Under the pieces are notes generated by a model. It had not been told where the DNA came from. It saw nothing but the letters and a program-made list of their open reading frames with translations, and made no database searches. A program made the translations under genes and the position numbers. From Candidatus Aenigmatarchaeota archaeon (GTDB lineage: Archaea > Aenigmatarchaeota > Aenigmatarchaeia > CG10238-14 > SpSt-28): a stretch of DNA of 64,000 nt. This document shows positions 16,405-46,637 of this stretch, one piece after another. Within the stretch, counting starts at the first letter, position 1; the number at the start of each line of letters is the position of its first letter. The stretch spans positions 644 to 64,643 of the forward strand of contig DAISZX010000001.1 of NCBI GenBank assembly GCA_036824555.1. The letters run 5' to 3'.

Positions 16405-16524
16405 CGCTGGGGGTGGGATTTGAACCCACACGGGCGTAAAGCCCACCGGCTTTCTTCATTATTGTTCAGTCCTTGAGTTTTCAAAACTCAAGGCCGGCGC
16501 CCTACCTGGTTAGGCGACCCCAGC
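16405..16524 (-). tRNA. tRNA-Ser (anticodon TGA), type II, with about 35-nt intron after position 37
   Basis: hand fold of reverse complement: acceptor GCTGGGG/CCCCAGC, G73, anticodon stem CCGGC/GCCGG, loop CTTGAG, intron with AAAACTCAAG pairing the loop (bulge-helix-bulge), long variable arm GGGC-TTTAC-GCCC, T-arm GTGGG-TTCAAAT-CCCAC. Confidence 0.7.
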
Positions 16525-23898: not shown

Positions 23899-24011
23899 AG
23901 CCCCGTCGTCTAGCGGCCAAGGATACCGGGCTTTGGTCTATTCAACCAAAGCTTTGATAAAGGATGATAGGAAGAAACCCGGGGACGGCGGTTCGAATCC
24001 GCCCGGGGCTA
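23899..24011 (+). tRNA. tRNA-Gln (anticodon TTG) with about 41-nt intron after position 37
   Basis: hand fold: acceptor AGCCCCG/CGGGGCT, A73, anticodon stem CCGGG/CCCGG, loop CTTTGG, intron containing CCAAAGCTTTG that pairs the loop, T-arm GGCGG-TTCGAAT-CCGCC. Confidence 0.7.
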
Positions 24012-30772: not shown

Positions 30773-30895
30773 TGGTTGGCGGCCAGATCGGGAGGGAAAC
30801 ACCCGGTCTCGTTCCGATCCCGGAAGTTAAGCCTCCCGGAGGTGTGGAAAGTACTGCCCCGCATGGGGTGGGAAATCCACGTCGCTGCCAACCGA
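30773..30895 (+). rRNA. rrf: 5S ribosomal RNA
   Basis: GGTTGGCGGCC...CCCGGTCTCGTTCCGATCCCGGAAGTTAAGCC...GTACTGCCC...GTCGCTGCCAACC has archaeal 5S helix I closure and loop C/E consensus; ends approximate to 1-2 nt. Confidence 0.85.
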
Positions 30896-30941
30896 ATTTA
30901 TTAATTTTTTTATTATCTGAGTAAACTCTAAAATTATATAT

Positions 30942-31014
30942 GCCCTCGTCGTCTAGTGGTCTAGGATGCAGGCCTGTCACGCCTGAGACCCGGGTTCGAA
31001 TCCCGGCGGGGGCG
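30942..31014 (+). tRNA. tRNA-Asp (anticodon GTC)
   Basis: 73-nt cloverleaf: acceptor GCCCTCG/CGGGGGC, anticodon loop CTGTCAC, T-arm CCGGG-TTCGAAT-CCCGG, G73; no intron. Confidence 0.9.
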
Positions 31015-31178
31015 CTTGAAAGGCTCTTTCCATTTTATTAACATTAAAGGAGCTGAAGTCGAAAATAAAATCCTAACTTCGAGTATGTTATAATTTGAGA
31101 GAAAAGATCGTTTTGGAAAGTTAGAGACTATTTGCTAAAGAGTTAAAAGTTGAACAATTTTAATGTATAGAACCTCTA

Positions 31179-41612: not shown

Positions 41613-41724
41613 CGCCGGGGGTGGGATTCGAACCCACAAGGGCGTTAAAGCCCACCGGTTTTCTTCATATCTCTCAGATCTCGATAACTCGAGACCGGTG
41701 CCATACCAGTTAGGCGACCCCGGC
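41613..41724 (-). tRNA. tRNA-Ser (anticodon CGA), type II, with about 28-nt intron after position 37
   Basis: hand fold of reverse complement: acceptor GCCGGGG/CCCCGGC, G73, anticodon stem CCGGT/ACCGG, loop CTCGAG, intron TTATCGAGATC... pairing the loop, variable arm GGGC-TTTAAC-GCCC, T-arm GTGGG-TTCGAAT-CCCAC. Confidence 0.7.
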
Positions 41725-41750: not shown

Positions 41751-42482
41751 TTAGAAAACTTCAGTCCCAGAGTGTTTTCCTTCTATAGCACTTATTATTT
41801 CCTTTGGATTTCTGCCGTCAATAACTATAAGTTTAATTCTACTTTTCTTTAAGAGCTTTGCAGCCTTTAAGTCAAATAGCCTATATTCTCCAGGCCTTTG
41901 AGGATTTTTTGAAATTATTTTTATAAAATCATCATAAGTTAGTCTTTCAAATTTTTTAGCATCCTTGAACTTATTCGGATCTTTATCATAAATTCCATCT
42001 ACATTCGTTGCGTTGATAACAACATCTGCTTTGATCAAAGAGGCAAAGTAGGCGGAATCAAAATCTGTAGAACAACCAACATCATAGCCAGCACAAACAA
42101 GAACTTTCTTTCCAAAATGTTTTTTGACCTCTTTTGAAGCTTCTTTTAAACTTTTCCACTTAACTAAGTAAGAATTTTTCACTAGTGTAGAAAAAGTTGC
42201 AGCATTTATGTGAGTTGCCATTATTCCTATAAAATCAAGCATTTCATTACTTGCCTTTGCTTTTCTTGCAATACTTTGATAAATTCTTGCCGTACTTCCG
42301 CCACCACAGACGACAATAATCTTGTGTTCTTTTGAAATTTTATTTACAATATCAGCATATTTTTTAAAATTATCATAGCTTAACTCTTTGGTCAATAGCG
42401 AGCCTCCAATAGAAATTACTACTTTCATATTAGTTTTATGCTTAATAATTATATAAGGTTGGTAGTTTGAGGTGACTCTCAT
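41751..42482 (-). CDS. pyrH: uridylate (UMP) kinase
   Basis: amino-acid-kinase fold MKVVISIGGSLL...VVCGGG; the true start is probably the internal MKVV at about 42431. Confidence 0.85.
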   Translation of the reverse strand: MRVTSNYQPYIIIKHKTNMKVVISIGGSLLTKELSYDNFKKYADIVNKISKEHKIIVVCGGGSTARIYQSIARKAKASNEMLDFIGIMATHINAATFSTLVKNSYLVKWKSLKEASKEVKKHFGKKVLVCAGYDVGCSTDFDSAYFASLIKADVVINATNVDGIYDKDPNKFKDAKKFERLTYDDFIKIISKNPQRPGEYRLFDLKAAKLLKKSRIKLIVIDGRNPKEIISAIEGKHSGTEVF

Positions 42483-42894
42483 GAGAATTTATCAAAGCGA
42501 AGTAAAGTTAAGAACAAAAGGGGCGTATGACTTTTTAGATATAAGCGAAAGGATAATAGAGGAAGTAAAAAGAAGCGGAGTTAAGAATGGTATGGCTTTC
42601 TTAAACGTTTTACATAATACTGCTTGCTTAATAATTCAAGAAAACGATAAAACAATATTTGAGGATATGAAAAAACTTTTCGATAGAATATTGCCGTTAA
42701 ATGAAAATTATACTCATAGCTATGAAGGTAACTTAAATGCCACTGCTCATTTAAAATCGAATTTGCTTTCTCAATCTTTAGCTTTACCGATAAAAAATGG
42801 AGAGCTTGTTCTTGGAACTTGGCAAAGAATAATTCTTGTTGAATTATTTGAACCGAGAGTAAGAACCGTTTTTATTACAATTATGGGTGAGTAG
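42472..42894 (+). CDS. YjbQ/UPF0047 family protein
   Basis: HNTACLIIQENDK...NATAHLKSNLLSQSLALPIKNGELVLGTWQRIILVELFEPRVR family signature; 140 aa. Confidence 0.8.
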   Translation: MTLMRIYQSEVKLRTKGAYDFLDISERIIEEVKRSGVKNGMAFLNVLHNTACLIIQENDKTIFEDMKKLFDRILPLNENYTHSYEGNLNATAHLKSNLLSQSLALPIKNGELVLGTWQRIILVELFEPRVRTVFITIMGE

Positions 42895-44418
42895 GTGCAA
42901 TTAAAGGGCATAGAGTTGAGGGAGTATCAAAAGAATATTGCAAATACCTGTCTGAAAGGAAACACTTTAGTTGTACTACCAACTGGCTTAGGGAAAACAA
43001 TCATTGCAATTTATGTTGCTGTCAAAAGATTAGAACAATTCCCAGATGGTAAGATACTCTTCATGGCTCCTACTAGACCTTTAAATGCCCAGCATGTTAA
43101 ATCATTCCTTCAATTCACAGATTTAAGCAGCGAAGAAGTAGCCTTAATAACAGGCAAAATAAAGCCCGATAAAAGAATAGAACTATACAGAAAGGCCAGG
43201 GTTATTGTTGCCACTCCTCAAACAATAGCTAATGATTTGAAAGAAAATAGAATACATCTGGAAGATTTCATTCTCGCAGTTTTTGATGAAGCCCATAGAG
43301 CTGTAAAAGATTACTCTTATACTGAAGTGGCAAAGGCATACCTTATACAAGCGAAAAATCCTTTGATAATTGGTCTAACTGCATCTCCTGGCGGAGAGGA
43401 AGAGAGAATAAATGAGGTTATTAGAAATTTGTTTATCAAATTTGTTGAAATAAGGACAGAAAGCGATCCAGATGTTAGACCTTACGTTAAACAAATTGAG
43501 AAAGAGTATGTTTATGTAGAATTGCCTTCAGACCTTGATGAAATAAGGAGAAAATTGCTTGAAATATATGATGAAATTCTAGAGTGGTTGAAAGAACACA
43601 TGTTTATTAAATCTAAAGACGTTTCTAAGAAGGAACTTTTAAATCTACAGAACTCTTTGATTGCAAGCTATGATAGAGGAATGAATAACCCAATAAATGT
43701 TTGGGGTATGATTAAAGTTTCTCAGGCATTAAAAGTTCTTTATGCCATAGAGATTTTGGAAACTCAAGAAATAACCGCATTTACAAGCTATCTAAGAGAG
43801 CTTAGAATGAGCAAAAAAAGAGCAGAAAGACTTTTAATAGCTCATAAAAATTTTAAAGAAATTTTTGGGAAGTTAGAAGAGATAGAAAATAAATACAAAG
43901 TTCACCCAAAAATGGAAAAGTTGCTTTCGATTGTAAATTACATCCTAAAAGAGAATGATAAAAACAGAGTTATAATTTTCGCTAATTATAGAGAGACTGT
44001 GGAAAAAATAAGGAACTTCTTAGTGGAAAATGGGATTAAAGCTGAAATTCTAGTGGGTCAGGCCAAGAAGAGAGGTAAAGGGCTAAGTCAAAAAGAACAA
44101 ATCGAGATTGTGAGAAGGTTTGCTAATAATGAATTTAATGTTTTAGTTTGCTCTAGTATAGGCGAGGAAGGATTAGATATTGCCTCCGTAAACTATGCAA
44201 TATTTTATGATGCTGTACCAAGCGAGATAAGAGCAATACAAAGAAGAGGGAGAGTCGGTAGGCAAACTGAAGGTAAAGTAATTTTCATACTAACTAAAGG
44301 AAGTAGAGATCAAATATACTTTTTCTCTTCTTTAATGAAAGAGAAAAAAATGAAGAGATTGTTGAAAAATATGAGATATATTAAAAAAAGAGAAAGTCTA
44401 ATGGACTGGCTTAAGTGA
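42895..44418 (+). CDS. hef: Hef-type (FANCM/XPF-family) superfamily-2 helicase; helicase part only
   Basis: LPTGLGKT Walker A, AVFDEAHRAV DEAH box, helicase C-terminal motifs (QRRGRVGR); ends 4 nt before the nuclease ORF. Confidence 0.8.
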   Translation: MQLKGIELREYQKNIANTCLKGNTLVVLPTGLGKTIIAIYVAVKRLEQFPDGKILFMAPTRPLNAQHVKSFLQFTDLSSEEVALITGKIKPDKRIELYRKARVIVATPQTIANDLKENRIHLEDFILAVFDEAHRAVKDYSYTEVAKAYLIQAKNPLIIGLTASPGGEEERINEVIRNLFIKFVEIRTESDPDVRPYVKQIEKEYVYVELPSDLDEIRRKLLEIYDEILEWLKEHMFIKSKDVSKKELLNLQNSLIASYDRGMNNPINVWGMIKVSQALKVLYAIEILETQEITAFTSYLRELRMSKKRAERLLIAHKNFKEIFGKLEEIENKYKVHPKMEKLLSIVNYILKENDKNRVIIFANYRETVEKIRNFLVENGIKAEILVGQAKKRGKGLSQKEQIEIVRRFANNEFNVLVCSSIGEEGLDIASVNYAIFYDAVPSEIRAIQRRGRVGRQTEGKVIFILTKGSRDQIYFFSSLMKEKKMKRLLKNMRYIKKRESLMDWLK

Positions 44419-44422
44419 TTTT

Positions 44423-45076
44423 ATGGAGAAACAACTTAGCTTAGCAAATAACGTAATTTTCGTTGATTATAGGGAAGAGAAAATTGCGGGCTTGTTGGAG
44501 AGTATGGGTTGCAGAGTTGTAAGATTAAAACTAGAGGTTGGTGACTATGCGATAAATAGAATAGGAATAGAAAGGAAGAGCTTTGACGACTTCGTATCAT
44601 CGATAATAGACGGAAGAATTTTTGGGCAAGCAAATGAACTTTCTTCAACATATGAGAAACCAATTTTAATCTTAGAAGGATTTGGAGTAGTCGAAAGGAT
44701 TCACGAAAATTCTTTTTATGCTACTCTCGCATACCTTATTTCTAAGTTGGGGATTACCGTTTTTAGGAGTAAGAATGAAGAGGAAACAGCTAAAACAATT
44801 TTTTGGATTGCAAAAAAAGAGTTTGAAGAAGGTGGTAGAGCGGCTTATAAGGTTAGAGAGAAGAAAGTCGAGGTAGGAAGCATTCAGGAGAGAATAATAG
44901 CGGCTTTTCCAGGAATTTCTACAGTCTTAAGTAAAAGAATACTAAAAAAATTTGGTAGCTTGCAAAAATTCTTTGCTGCTGGAGAGAAAGAGTTGATGGA
45001 GATCGATGGAATAGGAGAGAAGATCGCTAAGAGAATAAGAAAAATAATAGAAGAGGAGGTTGAGGTGGTCAGTTGA
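44423..45076 (+). CDS. ERCC4-type (XPF/Hef) nuclease domain with C-terminal HhH2 dimerisation domain
   Basis: FVDYRE...GDYAINRIGIERKSFDD ERCC4 catalytic motif; C-terminal tandem HhH (ISTVLSKRILKKFGSL...IDGIGEKIAKRI). Confidence 0.8.
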   Translation: MEKQLSLANNVIFVDYREEKIAGLLESMGCRVVRLKLEVGDYAINRIGIERKSFDDFVSSIIDGRIFGQANELSSTYEKPILILEGFGVVERIHENSFYATLAYLISKLGITVFRSKNEEETAKTIFWIAKKEFEEGGRAAYKVREKKVEVGSIQERIIAAFPGISTVLSKRILKKFGSLQKFFAAGEKELMEIDGIGEKIAKRIRKIIEEEVEVVS

Positions 45077-46116
45077 AGAGCGTGATAGTAGGATTGGATG
45101 CCGGCCTTAATTCTGCTTTAGCCATACTTTCTTTAAGCGGTGACTTACTTTTTCTTGAAACTTTTAGAGGTTATAATAGAGGGGAAATAATAAGGAAAAT
45201 TATAAAATTTGGTAGGCCTATCTTGATTTCTACCGATAAGAGGGAAACACCAAAAGCAGCTAAAGAGATCGCAAGTTCTTTTGGTTGTAGGATTTTAAGA
45301 CCTAGGAGAGATTTGAGTAGGGAGGAGAAAGAAGAGGTAACAAGGGATTATAAAGACTTAATAAAAGATAGTCATCAGCTCGATGCCTTGTCTTCAGCCA
45401 TCTTTGCTTATAGGAAGGTGAAAAAGAAGATTGAAGCTGTTGAGAGATATTTAATGAGAAGGGGTCTTATTAGCTATTTGGATGAAGTTGTTTATTATCT
45501 TTTCAAACTTAGGGGAGTAAATATAGAGCAGGTAATTGAGAAATTTGTTAGTGGGGAGAGAGAAATAAAGAAAGAGGAGTCAGCTTTAAAGTTTGAAAAA
45601 AAGGAAGATATTTTTGTTGAGTTTTTGGAAGAGAGATTAAGGTTAGAGAAAGAGTTAGATAGGTTTAGAGAAGAACTATCATCATATAAGAAAATGAAGC
45701 TAAGATTTGATGAGTTGTTAGAGTTGAAAAGAGATTTCTCAAAGCTAAAGCACTATTTTAATTTGTTAAAAGATATGGAAAAGGCATGGAATTTAGGTCT
45801 AATTCCCGTTCTACCATTAGAAAAAATAGAGAATTTAGATGAATTAGAAAATTATATTGGATTAGAGGGGAGGATTATTTTTTCTAATGATGTCGATGGT
45901 TTTAATTCGCTCGGAAAGTATAGTGTAAAGTGTGTTTTGACAGAATTCTCACCTAAAAGCGAGACGAAATTCCCAGTTTTAAAGATTAGAAGAGATGAGT
46001 TAAGAGAAGTTGGGAGTGTTTATGGTATAGAAGAGAAGAAGATAAATAACAAATTGTTAGAGGCAATGAAGGAGGAATTGAAGAAATGGGTAGAAGAAGA
46101 AAGAGGAAAGATTTAA
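45073..46116 (+). CDS. predicted RNase-H-fold nuclease (RuvC/YqgF-like, COG2433/DUF460-type) with coiled-coil region
   Basis: N-terminal VIVGLDAGLNSALAILS resembles YqgF/RuvC resolvase start; central K/E-rich coiled coil; 4-nt overlap with the nuclease gene. Confidence 0.5.
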   Translation: MKSVIVGLDAGLNSALAILSLSGDLLFLETFRGYNRGEIIRKIIKFGRPILISTDKRETPKAAKEIASSFGCRILRPRRDLSREEKEEVTRDYKDLIKDSHQLDALSSAIFAYRKVKKKIEAVERYLMRRGLISYLDEVVYYLFKLRGVNIEQVIEKFVSGEREIKKEESALKFEKKEDIFVEFLEERLRLEKELDRFREELSSYKKMKLRFDELLELKRDFSKLKHYFNLLKDMEKAWNLGLIPVLPLEKIENLDELENYIGLEGRIIFSNDVDGFNSLGKYSVKCVLTEFSPKSETKFPVLKIRRDELREVGSVYGIEEKKINNKLLEAMKEELKKWVEEERGKI

Positions 46117-46637
46117 TTTTAACTTTTTTGGATTTTGTTATAACAATAAATTTGTTCTCAATACCCCTTTATCTATTCATAAATTTCGGATTTGAGTTAC
46201 CCTTTCTTAAAAATCTAGAAGCTACTCTCGCTTCAAAATTTCTTAGTTTTCTAGGATTGAACGCAAGTAGCTCGGAAAATTTTGTAATTATTGATAATAG
46301 CTTATATGAAATTTCTTGGGATTCCACCGGCTGGAAGAGCCTTTATACATTTTTCGCATTGGTAATTTCGACCCCTATATTTCATAAAAGAAAGCTTAAA
46401 CCACTTCTTTTTGGTTTGTTTGCAATATTCATTTTTAACTTATTAAGGATTTCAGCAACTATTTATCTATCTTACAAGCAACTCTACTCTTTTGATTTTC
46501 TCCACTTAAGTTTATGGAGATTCGGCTCCATCGCTTTTCTTCTTCTACTTTGGTTTATATTCTTGTATACACAAAAGAATAATATTGGGGAAAATAAAAA
46601 TATATTAGGTTTTGTCTATGGAAGAGGAAAACCTTAA
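46086..46637 (+). CDS. polytopic membrane protein, possibly exosortase/archaeosortase-like with Cys-to-Ser substitution
   Basis: WDSTGWKSL aligns with exosortase aCSGlRSl active-site block but with Ser in place of Cys; conserved N..R (FNLLRIS) downstream; weak call. Confidence 0.3.
   Translation: MGRRRKRKDLILTFLDFVITINLFSIPLYLFINFGFELPFLKNLEATLASKFLSFLGLNASSSENFVIIDNSLYEISWDSTGWKSLYTFFALVISTPIFHKRKLKPLLFGLFAIFIFNLLRISATIYLSYKQLYSFDFLHLSLWRFGSIAFLLLLWFIFLYTQKNNIGENKNILGFVYGRGKP

Follow-up and report, generated by a model that had tools for sequence, protein, structure and literature searches.

Adjacent genes for the helicase and nuclease halves of Hef in Aenigmatarchaeota

Reviews describe Hef as a euryarchaeal fusion protein and the XPF-family nuclease as present in all archaea (PMC7776575). 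Here we describe a locus in which counterparts of the two parts of Hef are encoded by adjacent genes, a Hef-type superfamily 2 (SF2) helicase gene (42895..44418, + strand) and a Hef-type ERCC4 nuclease gene (44423..45076, + strand). The locus lies in a 64-kb stretch (64,000 nucleotides, nt; ~34% G+C), referred to here as the window, of contig DAISZX010000001.1 from a Candidatus Aenigmatarchaeota archaeon. Most probably (about 85%) both genes are authentic and are translated separately, their products together making up a Hef, in an arrangement that is fixed across the Aenigmatarchaeota, a phylum of DPANN archaea.

The Hefs of Pyrococcus and Thermococcus (NCBIfam NF010337; PDB 1WP9, 1J22–1J25 and 1X2I) contain a helicase core with a thumb-like insertion, an ERCC4 domain and an HhH2 domain. 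The same parts are encoded in the same N-to-C order in the window, with a presumed role in stalled-fork processing common to both, and the window nuclease is ~40% identical to Thermococcus Hef. The window pair differs in being two genes and two polypeptides, and in lacking the 24–62 amino acid (aa) disordered linker of the Thermococcus and other Thermococcales Hefs. As cited in two reports, the linker of T. kodakarensis Hef carries the PCNA and HAN interactions (PMC7776575, PMC5717133). The domains of the fused protein are described as clearly separated, joined by a disordered region alone, and unable to access a junction simultaneously (PMC5717133).

Two other states have been described. Caldiarchaeum, Thaumarchaeota and a few of the euryarchaea are reported to encode an ERCC4-like helicase and an XPF nuclease separately (PMC3082918); these resemble the present genome in having the two as separate genes, but theirs are described as separately located whereas the window genes are adjacent, probably translationally coupled, and part of a conserved operon-like array. 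Thermoplasma acidophilum has a helicase-only Hef (taHef) that binds PCNA via a PCNA-interacting protein (PIP) box at its extreme C-terminus (residues 502–508), with I505 and F508 being essential, and the same box is present at the helicase/linker border of other Hefs (Rohleder et al., PMC4838364). The window helicase is similarly a stand-alone Hef helicase (507 aa; taHef ~508 aa) with a short PIP-like C-terminal motif and a tail predicted to be disordered, but unlike taHef it is followed 4 nt downstream by an intact Hef-type nuclease gene. A first-pass annotation of the window had set fused Hefs in euryarchaea against nuclease-only crenarchaea, a dichotomy that misses both the separate-gene state (PMC3082918) and the helicase-only taHef (PMC4838364).

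The crenarchaeal short XPF proteins (Sulfolobus, Aeropyrum; 2BGW/2BHN) share with the window nuclease a length of ~220 aa, the ERCC4 and HhH2 domains and an expected homodimeric state, and 2BGW is its best full-length PDB match. In contrast to these, the window nuclease has a Hef helicase gene immediately upstream and, by inspection of 22 homologue sequences, no conserved C-terminal PCNA-binding motif; the homologues have acidic or variable, unconserved C-termini (e.g. EEEVEVVS, EKYEVKS, EKY). The activity of crenarchaeal XPF reportedly requires such a C-terminal motif, a finding ascribed to Roberts et al. in 2003 (cited in PMC3082918). The eukaryotic FANCM-FAAP24, XPF-ERCC1 and MUS81-EME1 complexes belong to the same superfamily, follow the same logic of an SF2 helicase (or helicase-like) domain with ERCC4 and HhH2 domains, and are the next fold matches of the window nuclease after the archaeal ones. 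However, each of the eukaryotic proteins is one long chain and pairs with a degenerate paralogue as a heterodimer, whereas here there is no evident paralogue partner; the FANCM nuclease is inactive, whereas the window nuclease has an intact signature. Literature searches found no description of a split Hef in Aenigmarchaeota or DPANN. Separately encoded halves and a helicase-only Hef are already known, and current understanding is not overturned; what is modestly new is the adjacency and probable translational coupling of the halves, in an arrangement fixed across a DPANN phylum.

The helicase and nuclease genes

The helicase gene starts with GTG, ends with TGA (44416–44418) and encodes 507 aa; an alternative TTG start at 42916, giving a 500-aa product, is the one called by NCBI and JGI. 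The product has Pfam matches to DEAD/ResIII (1e-26), the Hef-type helical bundle PF21210 (8e-13) and Helicase_C (2e-24), corresponding to two RecA lobes and a thumb-like helical insertion. The insertion is represented both by the PF21210 match (residues 230–322) and by an all-helical segment (residues 212–333) in an AlphaFold2 (AF2) model with a mean predicted local distance difference test score (pLDDT) of 83. Helicase motifs I (PTGLGKT), II (DEAH) and VI (QRRGRVGR) are intact and their residues are invariant in 26 homologues. A PDB sequence search places the P. furiosus Hef helicase first among solved structures (1WP9, E 4e-125, residues 6–487) and FANCM second (1e-69).

The nuclease gene starts with ATG in its own frame and encodes 217 aa, with Pfam matches to ERCC4 (9e-27) and HhH (2e-8). 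The nuclease domain spans approximately residues 14–126 (44462–44800) and the HhH2 domain approximately residues 162–211 (44906–45055). The catalytic signature GDXnERKX3D (VGDY...IERKSFDD) is intact, comprising D15, R17, E18, D41, E50-R51-K52 and D56, and these residues are invariant across 22 homologues. PDB sequence matches include 2BGW (2e-35), 1J22 (2e-20) and 1X2I (8e-13), and a Foldseek search with the AF2 model (mean pLDDT 84.9) retrieves A. pernix XPF (4e-21) and the Pfu Hef nuclease (1J22; TM score 0.89, root mean square deviation 1.4 Å). The earlier description of both halves as intact thus agrees with the conserved catalytic motifs, and each gene is under purifying selection. In one relative, an uncultured archaeon (CAYMPD010000002.1; locus L078, 2168–4489), the split Hef-type nuclease gene encodes 773 aa and is enlarged by an intein that combines Intein_splicing with a LAGLIDADG homing endonuclease and lies within ERCC4, near the catalytic ERK motif.

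The two products match successive parts of the 781-position NCBIfam Hef model NF010337, the helicase at positions 14–510 (599.7 bits) and the nuclease at 570–778 (180.5 bits). Each alone scores below the 610-bit cut-off, and together they represent the two halves of one Hef model from which the linker positions alone are missing. Linker aside, they align colinearly with the helicase and nuclease halves of fused Hef. A crenarchaeal-type XPF that merely happens to lie beside a helicase was considered and rejected, since the nuclease scores twice as high on the Hef model as on the crenarchaeal Xpf model NF040956 (92 bits, cut-off 300) and has no C-terminal PIP motif. The PDB sequence search is unable to settle the nuclease sub-family, as the scores for 2BGW (126 bits) and for 1J22 and 1X2I combined (129 bits) are nearly equal.

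The junction and its counterparts in related genomes

The nuclease frame is +1 relative to that of the helicase and the two genes are separated by the 4-nt spacer TTTT (44419–44422). A Shine-Dalgarno (SD)-like GTGAT (44415–44419, + strand) overlaps the helicase TGA, and the nuclease ATG is at 44423–44425; the assembled junction reads TGATTTTATG (within 44380–44440). The open reading frame (ORF) coordinates in the first-pass annotation, with the helicase ending at its own TGA at 44418 and the nuclease starting at its own ATG at 44423 in the +1 frame, are correct as given. So is the placement of the split at the interdomain linker: the helicase ends two residues past the motif at which the linker starts in fused Hefs, and the nuclease starts ~10 residues ahead of its first conserved strand. 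The locus does not encode a single polypeptide with a linker, the halves being separated by both the TGA and the change of frame.

The same arrangement is present in independent assemblies. The exact nuclease protein is also encoded on a JGI and a Logan assembly (L001 and L002), and in both a helicase stop, a 4-nt spacer and a nuclease start follow one another; a 201-nt segment across the junction is identical in all three, although the two assemblies show 13 differences from the window over 5026 positions and 8 over 3794. The 120 best helicase homologues (100% to 50% identity) are all 500–520 aa long and none contains ERCC4, and the 120 best nuclease homologues (100% to 39% identity) are all 208–238 aa long. 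The named members of both sets are Aenigmarchaeota/Aenigmatarchaeota.

A nuclease-profile scan of species-representative genomes yielded 80 loci, to which ORF and phmmer analysis was applied. Relatives do share the split, with 52 of these loci, nearly all from Aenigmatarchaeota, containing separate helicase and nuclease ORFs. The two ORFs overlap by 1 or 4 nt in 18 loci (TAATG/TGATG, ATGA) and are separated by 0–64 nt in 23, by 212–535 nt in seven and by 1.2–1.8 kb in four, such that the genes are tightly adjacent in 41/52 (~80%). All three classes of frame relation are represented, including in-frame stops directly before the ATG, which are found at seven of the tight junctions. In two loci the halves are interrupted by an unrelated, oppositely oriented gene (PP-loop/TtuA-like in L053, NUDIX in L021), and in five loci there is no helicase within 2.2–3.9 kb upstream of the nuclease. 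The varied geometry and the intervening genes argue that neither an assembly error nor a conserved recoding signal is the source of the split, and its recurrence across the whole phylum identifies it as real biology rather than a sequencing error.

Initiation at the nuclease start is suggested by the sequences upstream of it. Five-mers complementary to the anti-SD sequence at the 3′ end of 16S rRNA occur there in 11 of 50 loci (3.9% of control positions) and four-mers in 28 of 50 (21% of control positions). This enrichment and the position of GTGAT over the helicase stop indicate that translation of the nuclease most likely starts on its own, in coupling with helicase termination.

Both termini at the junction carry conserved motifs. 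The helicase C-terminal tail (44383..44415, + strand; residues 497–507, KKRESLMDWLK) contains a basic run followed by a PIP-box-like [ST]-L-x-D-W-φ-K. The pattern [LIVM]x[DE][WFY] is present within the last 14 residues of 117/120 helicase homologues, compared to 5.9% of internal 14-aa windows; among these 117 the D is invariant, L is present in 112 and W in 107, giving the consensus K-K-K-x-[TSN]-L-x-D-W-φ-K-stop. The AF2 model predicts the tail to be disordered (pLDDT below 50 for residues 496–507), with a one-turn helix at 502–506. Concatenated split pairs were aligned with the fused Hefs of the same scan, which comprise Thermococcus proteins of ~775 aa, unclassified archaeal proteins of 713–876 aa, and L046 (735 aa). 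In this alignment the tail coincides with the motifs that start the linker in fused Hefs (ASLLGFVKPK in Thermococcus, Q-x-[ST]-L-x-x-F elsewhere), and the split helicases end one or two residues past that motif.

The PIP box of taHef is QKTIFDF, as derived from the primers in PMC4838364. The Aenigmatarchaeota tails (KKTIKDFVS in L009, ESLMDWLK in the window) correspond to it in position, in the L/I and in the aromatic residue, but not in the glutamine; K, R or E occupies this place in the window lineage, and the PIP consensus is only partly matched. From these sequences we infer that the split turns an internal PIP-type motif into a terminal one, by which the helicase may be recruited to PCNA by itself.

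At the other side of the junction the nuclease begins with a strongly conserved tail, M-E-[KT]-Q-K-[IL]-L-K-P among the 120 best homologues (44423–44446, residues 1–8), in which Q is present in 113/120 and lies 10–14 residues ahead of the DxRE motif. It is predicted to be disordered (pLDDT below 50) and resembles KPIFVRKPKG, the segment directly N-terminal to the nuclease domain of Thermococcus Hef. Its Q-K-I-L-K-P was considered as a PIP box and rejected, as it has no aromatic positions.

Mode of action and origin of the separate genes

The two products would act as follows. The nuclease would be translated at its own ATG by re-initiation or coupling, aided by the SD-like GTGAT. The helicase would be a stand-alone monomeric fork-remodelling translocase, as is taHef, presumably tethered to PCNA via its disordered, PIP-like C-terminal tail SLMDWLK, with the split placed just past this motif such that an internal PIP box would have become terminal. 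Homodimerisation of the nuclease would involve its ERCC4 and HhH2 domains, as in A. pernix XPF and the Hef C-terminal fragment, and its substrates would be fork or flap DNA. Helicase and nuclease would then meet on a DNA/PCNA platform rather than in an obligate, covalent-like complex. The domains of fused Hef are described as already apart and as not engaging a junction at the same time, which makes it plausible that the covalent link was lost without loss of function. The drift of the genes away from each other in some relatives argues against an obligate complex, and their tight adjacency in most loci argues for co-regulation. The earlier proposition that the two products must reassemble is not a necessary consequence of the split, given that the genes are apart or unlinked in several relatives and that the domains of the fused protein are described as separated (PMC5717133).

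Several points weigh against two separately translated and independently recruited products. That the genes are co-transcribed and coupled and give no fused product is inferred; the tight adjacency in ~80% of loci also fits an obligate complex; the tail motif has K in place of the canonical Q at PIP position 1 and a single aromatic residue; and the conserved disordered tail of the nuclease may be a docking peptide for the helicase. The direction of the change, from fused to split or the reverse, is moreover not proven, because the neighbour-joining (NJ) trees are unrooted and that of the nuclease has low support.

Some of these points bear on the possibility that the products form an obligate non-covalent Hef holoenzyme, in which the helicase tail, the nuclease N-terminal tail or both serve in docking rather than in PCNA binding. 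Such a complex would account for the tight adjacency, for the strong conservation of predicted-disordered motifs at both new termini (KKxTLxDWφK and M-E-x-Q-K-I-L-K-P) and for the helicase tail motif without the canonical PIP glutamine. However, nine loci have intervening genes or no helicase within 2.2–3.9 kb upstream (L034, L036, L039, L049, L050, L051, L053, L071 and L074), and a distant stand-alone nuclease has no helicase neighbour; a second distant short nuclease lies on a contig too short to show its neighbours. Fused Hefs, in which docking is not needed, carry this tail motif too, the equivalent taHef motif binds PCNA (PMC4838364), and the domains of fused Hef are described as clearly separated by a disordered join (PMC5717133). 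An obligate holoenzyme is thus a possibility that we consider unlikely, although one with some substance.

A further alternative concerns history, namely that Hef began as separate genes that had never been fused and that the fused form arose from an adjacent helicase–nuclease pair. Adjacent, translationally coupled genes are a classical precursor of fusion, the genes are also separate in Thaumarchaeota and Caldiarchaeum (PMC3082918), some analyses, as cited in PMC8407392, place DPANN near the archaeal root, and the unrooted trees of both proteins leave room for it. In the helicase NJ tree (122 helicases, 512 columns, 100 bootstraps), however, 49 split sequences form one clade (bootstrap 77) embedded among fused proteins; two further split sequences, L053 and L060, fall elsewhere. 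The nuclease NJ tree (219 columns) has a 66-member all-split clade adjoining the fused L046 and L035, with bootstraps of 15–23 for the split clade and 0 at deeper nodes; since it is poorly resolved the helicase tree was relied upon. Representatives of the 150 closest 50%-identity clusters of the nuclease comprise 62 short, 76 fused and 12 other or fragmentary proteins, with fused and short forms intermingled. Short nucleases that fall elsewhere than in the Aenigmatarchaeota clade lie nearer to the nucleases of fused Hefs than to A. pernix XPF. The window nuclease is likewise nearer to Hef nucleases than to stand-alone crenarchaeal XPF, eukaryotic XPF and FANCM are also one-chain combinations of helicase and nuclease by their PDB matches, and the helicase end falls exactly past a motif that is internal in fused forms. 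A never-fused ancestor is accordingly rather improbable on present trees. Judged from the sequences, the most parsimonious history appears to be a single old fission at the base of the Aenigmatarchaeota, of a Hef that probably already had a short linker, with further independent splits elsewhere.

Fused Hefs with essentially no interdomain linker are present among unclassified archaea in the same scan (L046, 2420–4627; L035, 1–1143; and L038, L044 and L070, of which L038 and L070 are labelled Nitrososphaeria), the set being 713–735 aa in length. L046 and L035 are colinear with the two ORFs of the window. Judging from these sequences, a long disordered linker like that of Thermococcales Hef is not general to the Hef family.

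Programmed +1 frameshifting at AAG-UGA-U, or bypass of the stop codon, could in principle produce a fused Hef besides or instead of the two products, and the first-pass annotation had listed it among its explanations. A U follows the stop codon, the +1 frame is open from 44402, and the site has a superficial likeness to stop-codon-dependent +1 sites. The junction is moreover conserved as AAGTGATTTTATG in L003–L005, and AAGTGATTTTATG is kept in the four closest species, which are 70–75% identical in the nuclease. Frameshifting keeps a low probability in this four-species subclade, to which the window belongs; as a general mechanism it is rejected because junction geometry and frame relation are not conserved: no shift site is shared across the phylum, each of the three offset classes is represented, and the junctions include seven tight ones with in-frame stops, 18 overlaps and 11 gaps of 0.2–1.8 kb, some with intervening genes. 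The conservation of AAGTGATTTTATG is equally explained by the SD element and its spacing, the nuclease has its own ATG and SD-like element, and tRNA-Lys would have no +1 re-pairing option on AAG-U. Genes of the prfB or antizyme type combine a shift site and frame relation conserved among orthologues with the lack of an independent downstream start, a combination that is not found here. Frameshifting is therefore very improbable.

Finally, breakage of a one-piece Hef gene by a single-base sequencing or assembly error, also raised in the first-pass annotation, is effectively refuted: a 1-nt change would formally yield a linker-less 724-aa protein colinear with fused Hefs such as the 735-aa ORF of L046, but TAA at 44399 closes the nuclease frame upstream and confines any such change to 44402–44422, the A-rich runs 30–70 nt upstream of the junction are homopolymers upstream of that TAA where errors would be unable to fuse the ORFs, two more assemblies, from populations that diverge slightly, have exactly this junction, no fused protein occurs among the 240 closest homologues of the halves, and all 52 related loci are split, with varied frames, overlaps and kb-scale gaps among their many junction geometries.

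Gene neighbourhood and significance

The two genes are part of a five-gene array (YjbQ – helicase – nuclease – DUF460 – archaeosortase-like) in which neighbouring genes are spaced or overlap by 0–31 nt, a packing that suggests the array is probably co-transcribed as one transcript. The first gene (42472..42894, + strand) is of the UPF0047/YjbQ family (Pfam PF01894, 2e-34; NCBIfam TIGR00149), its stop directly abuts the helicase GTG, and a member of the family is upstream of the helicase in roughly twenty related loci. The DUF460 gene (45073..46116, + strand; 347 aa; Pfam PF04312, 4e-29) has a TTG start that overlaps the nuclease stop by 4 nt (TTGA). The last gene in the conserved order (46086..46637, + strand) is of the archaeosortase/exosortase family (NCBIfam TIGR04178, 9e-10, and related models) and overlaps the end of DUF460.

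DUF460 is an archaea-specific, uncharacterised family, predicted to comprise RNase H-like nucleases that resemble Holliday junction resolvases (PMC3985635), namely those of the RuvC/YqgF type. The N-terminus of the window protein (VIVGLDAG...) has the first-strand aspartate, and a PDB sequence search with it returned nothing significant. In ~45 related loci, some of them lacking an adjacent helicase, DUF460 directly follows the nuclease, and the order nuclease – DUF460 – archaeosortase-like is kept in ~45 Aenigmatarchaeota loci (among L003–L078); DUF460 was not found beside the fused Hefs in loci of the same scan. In L005 (4648–6942) ~2.3 kb of unrelated ORFs between nuclease and DUF460 break the otherwise conserved order; by eye these include a cytochrome b5-like ORF and an opposite-strand peroxiredoxin-like fragment. 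The synteny raises the tentative possibility of a phylum-wide fork-repair operon of Hef helicase, Hef nuclease and DUF460, in which DUF460 might be a functional partner of the freed nuclease, for example by resolving four-way junctions that arise from helicase-driven fork reversal.

Elsewhere in the window there are three long Rfam tRNA matches of 112–120 nt, at 16405–16524 (− strand), 23899–24011 (+ strand) and 41613–41724 (− strand), that were missed by ARAGORN with bacterial settings and are probably intron-containing archaeal tRNA genes. One of these lies just upstream of the amino-acid-kinase gene that adjoins the Hef cluster. A 5S rRNA gene and, 49 nt downstream, tRNA-Asp(GTC) occupy 30775–31015 (+ strand), and there are no 16S or 23S rRNA genes in the window, suggesting that the 5S gene is unlinked from them.

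For annotation, a 'DEAD/DEAH box helicase' and an 'ERCC4 domain-containing protein' in Aenigmatarchaeota are to be read as a two-subunit Hef and not as a broken gene. The phylum also provides a natural experiment on Hef/FANCM-type enzymes, in which the protein is cut just past the PIP-like motif and the disordered linker is gone; it suggests that the covalent tether between helicase and nuclease is dispensable, unlike the PCNA-type tail. Of the by-products, the conserved helicase–nuclease–DUF460 gene order is the most interesting, as it gives a functional lead for an uncharacterised archaeal nuclease family. If the partnership with DUF460 is true, the splitting of Hef would have let the nuclease dimer be shared between helicase and DUF460, or be regulated apart from them.

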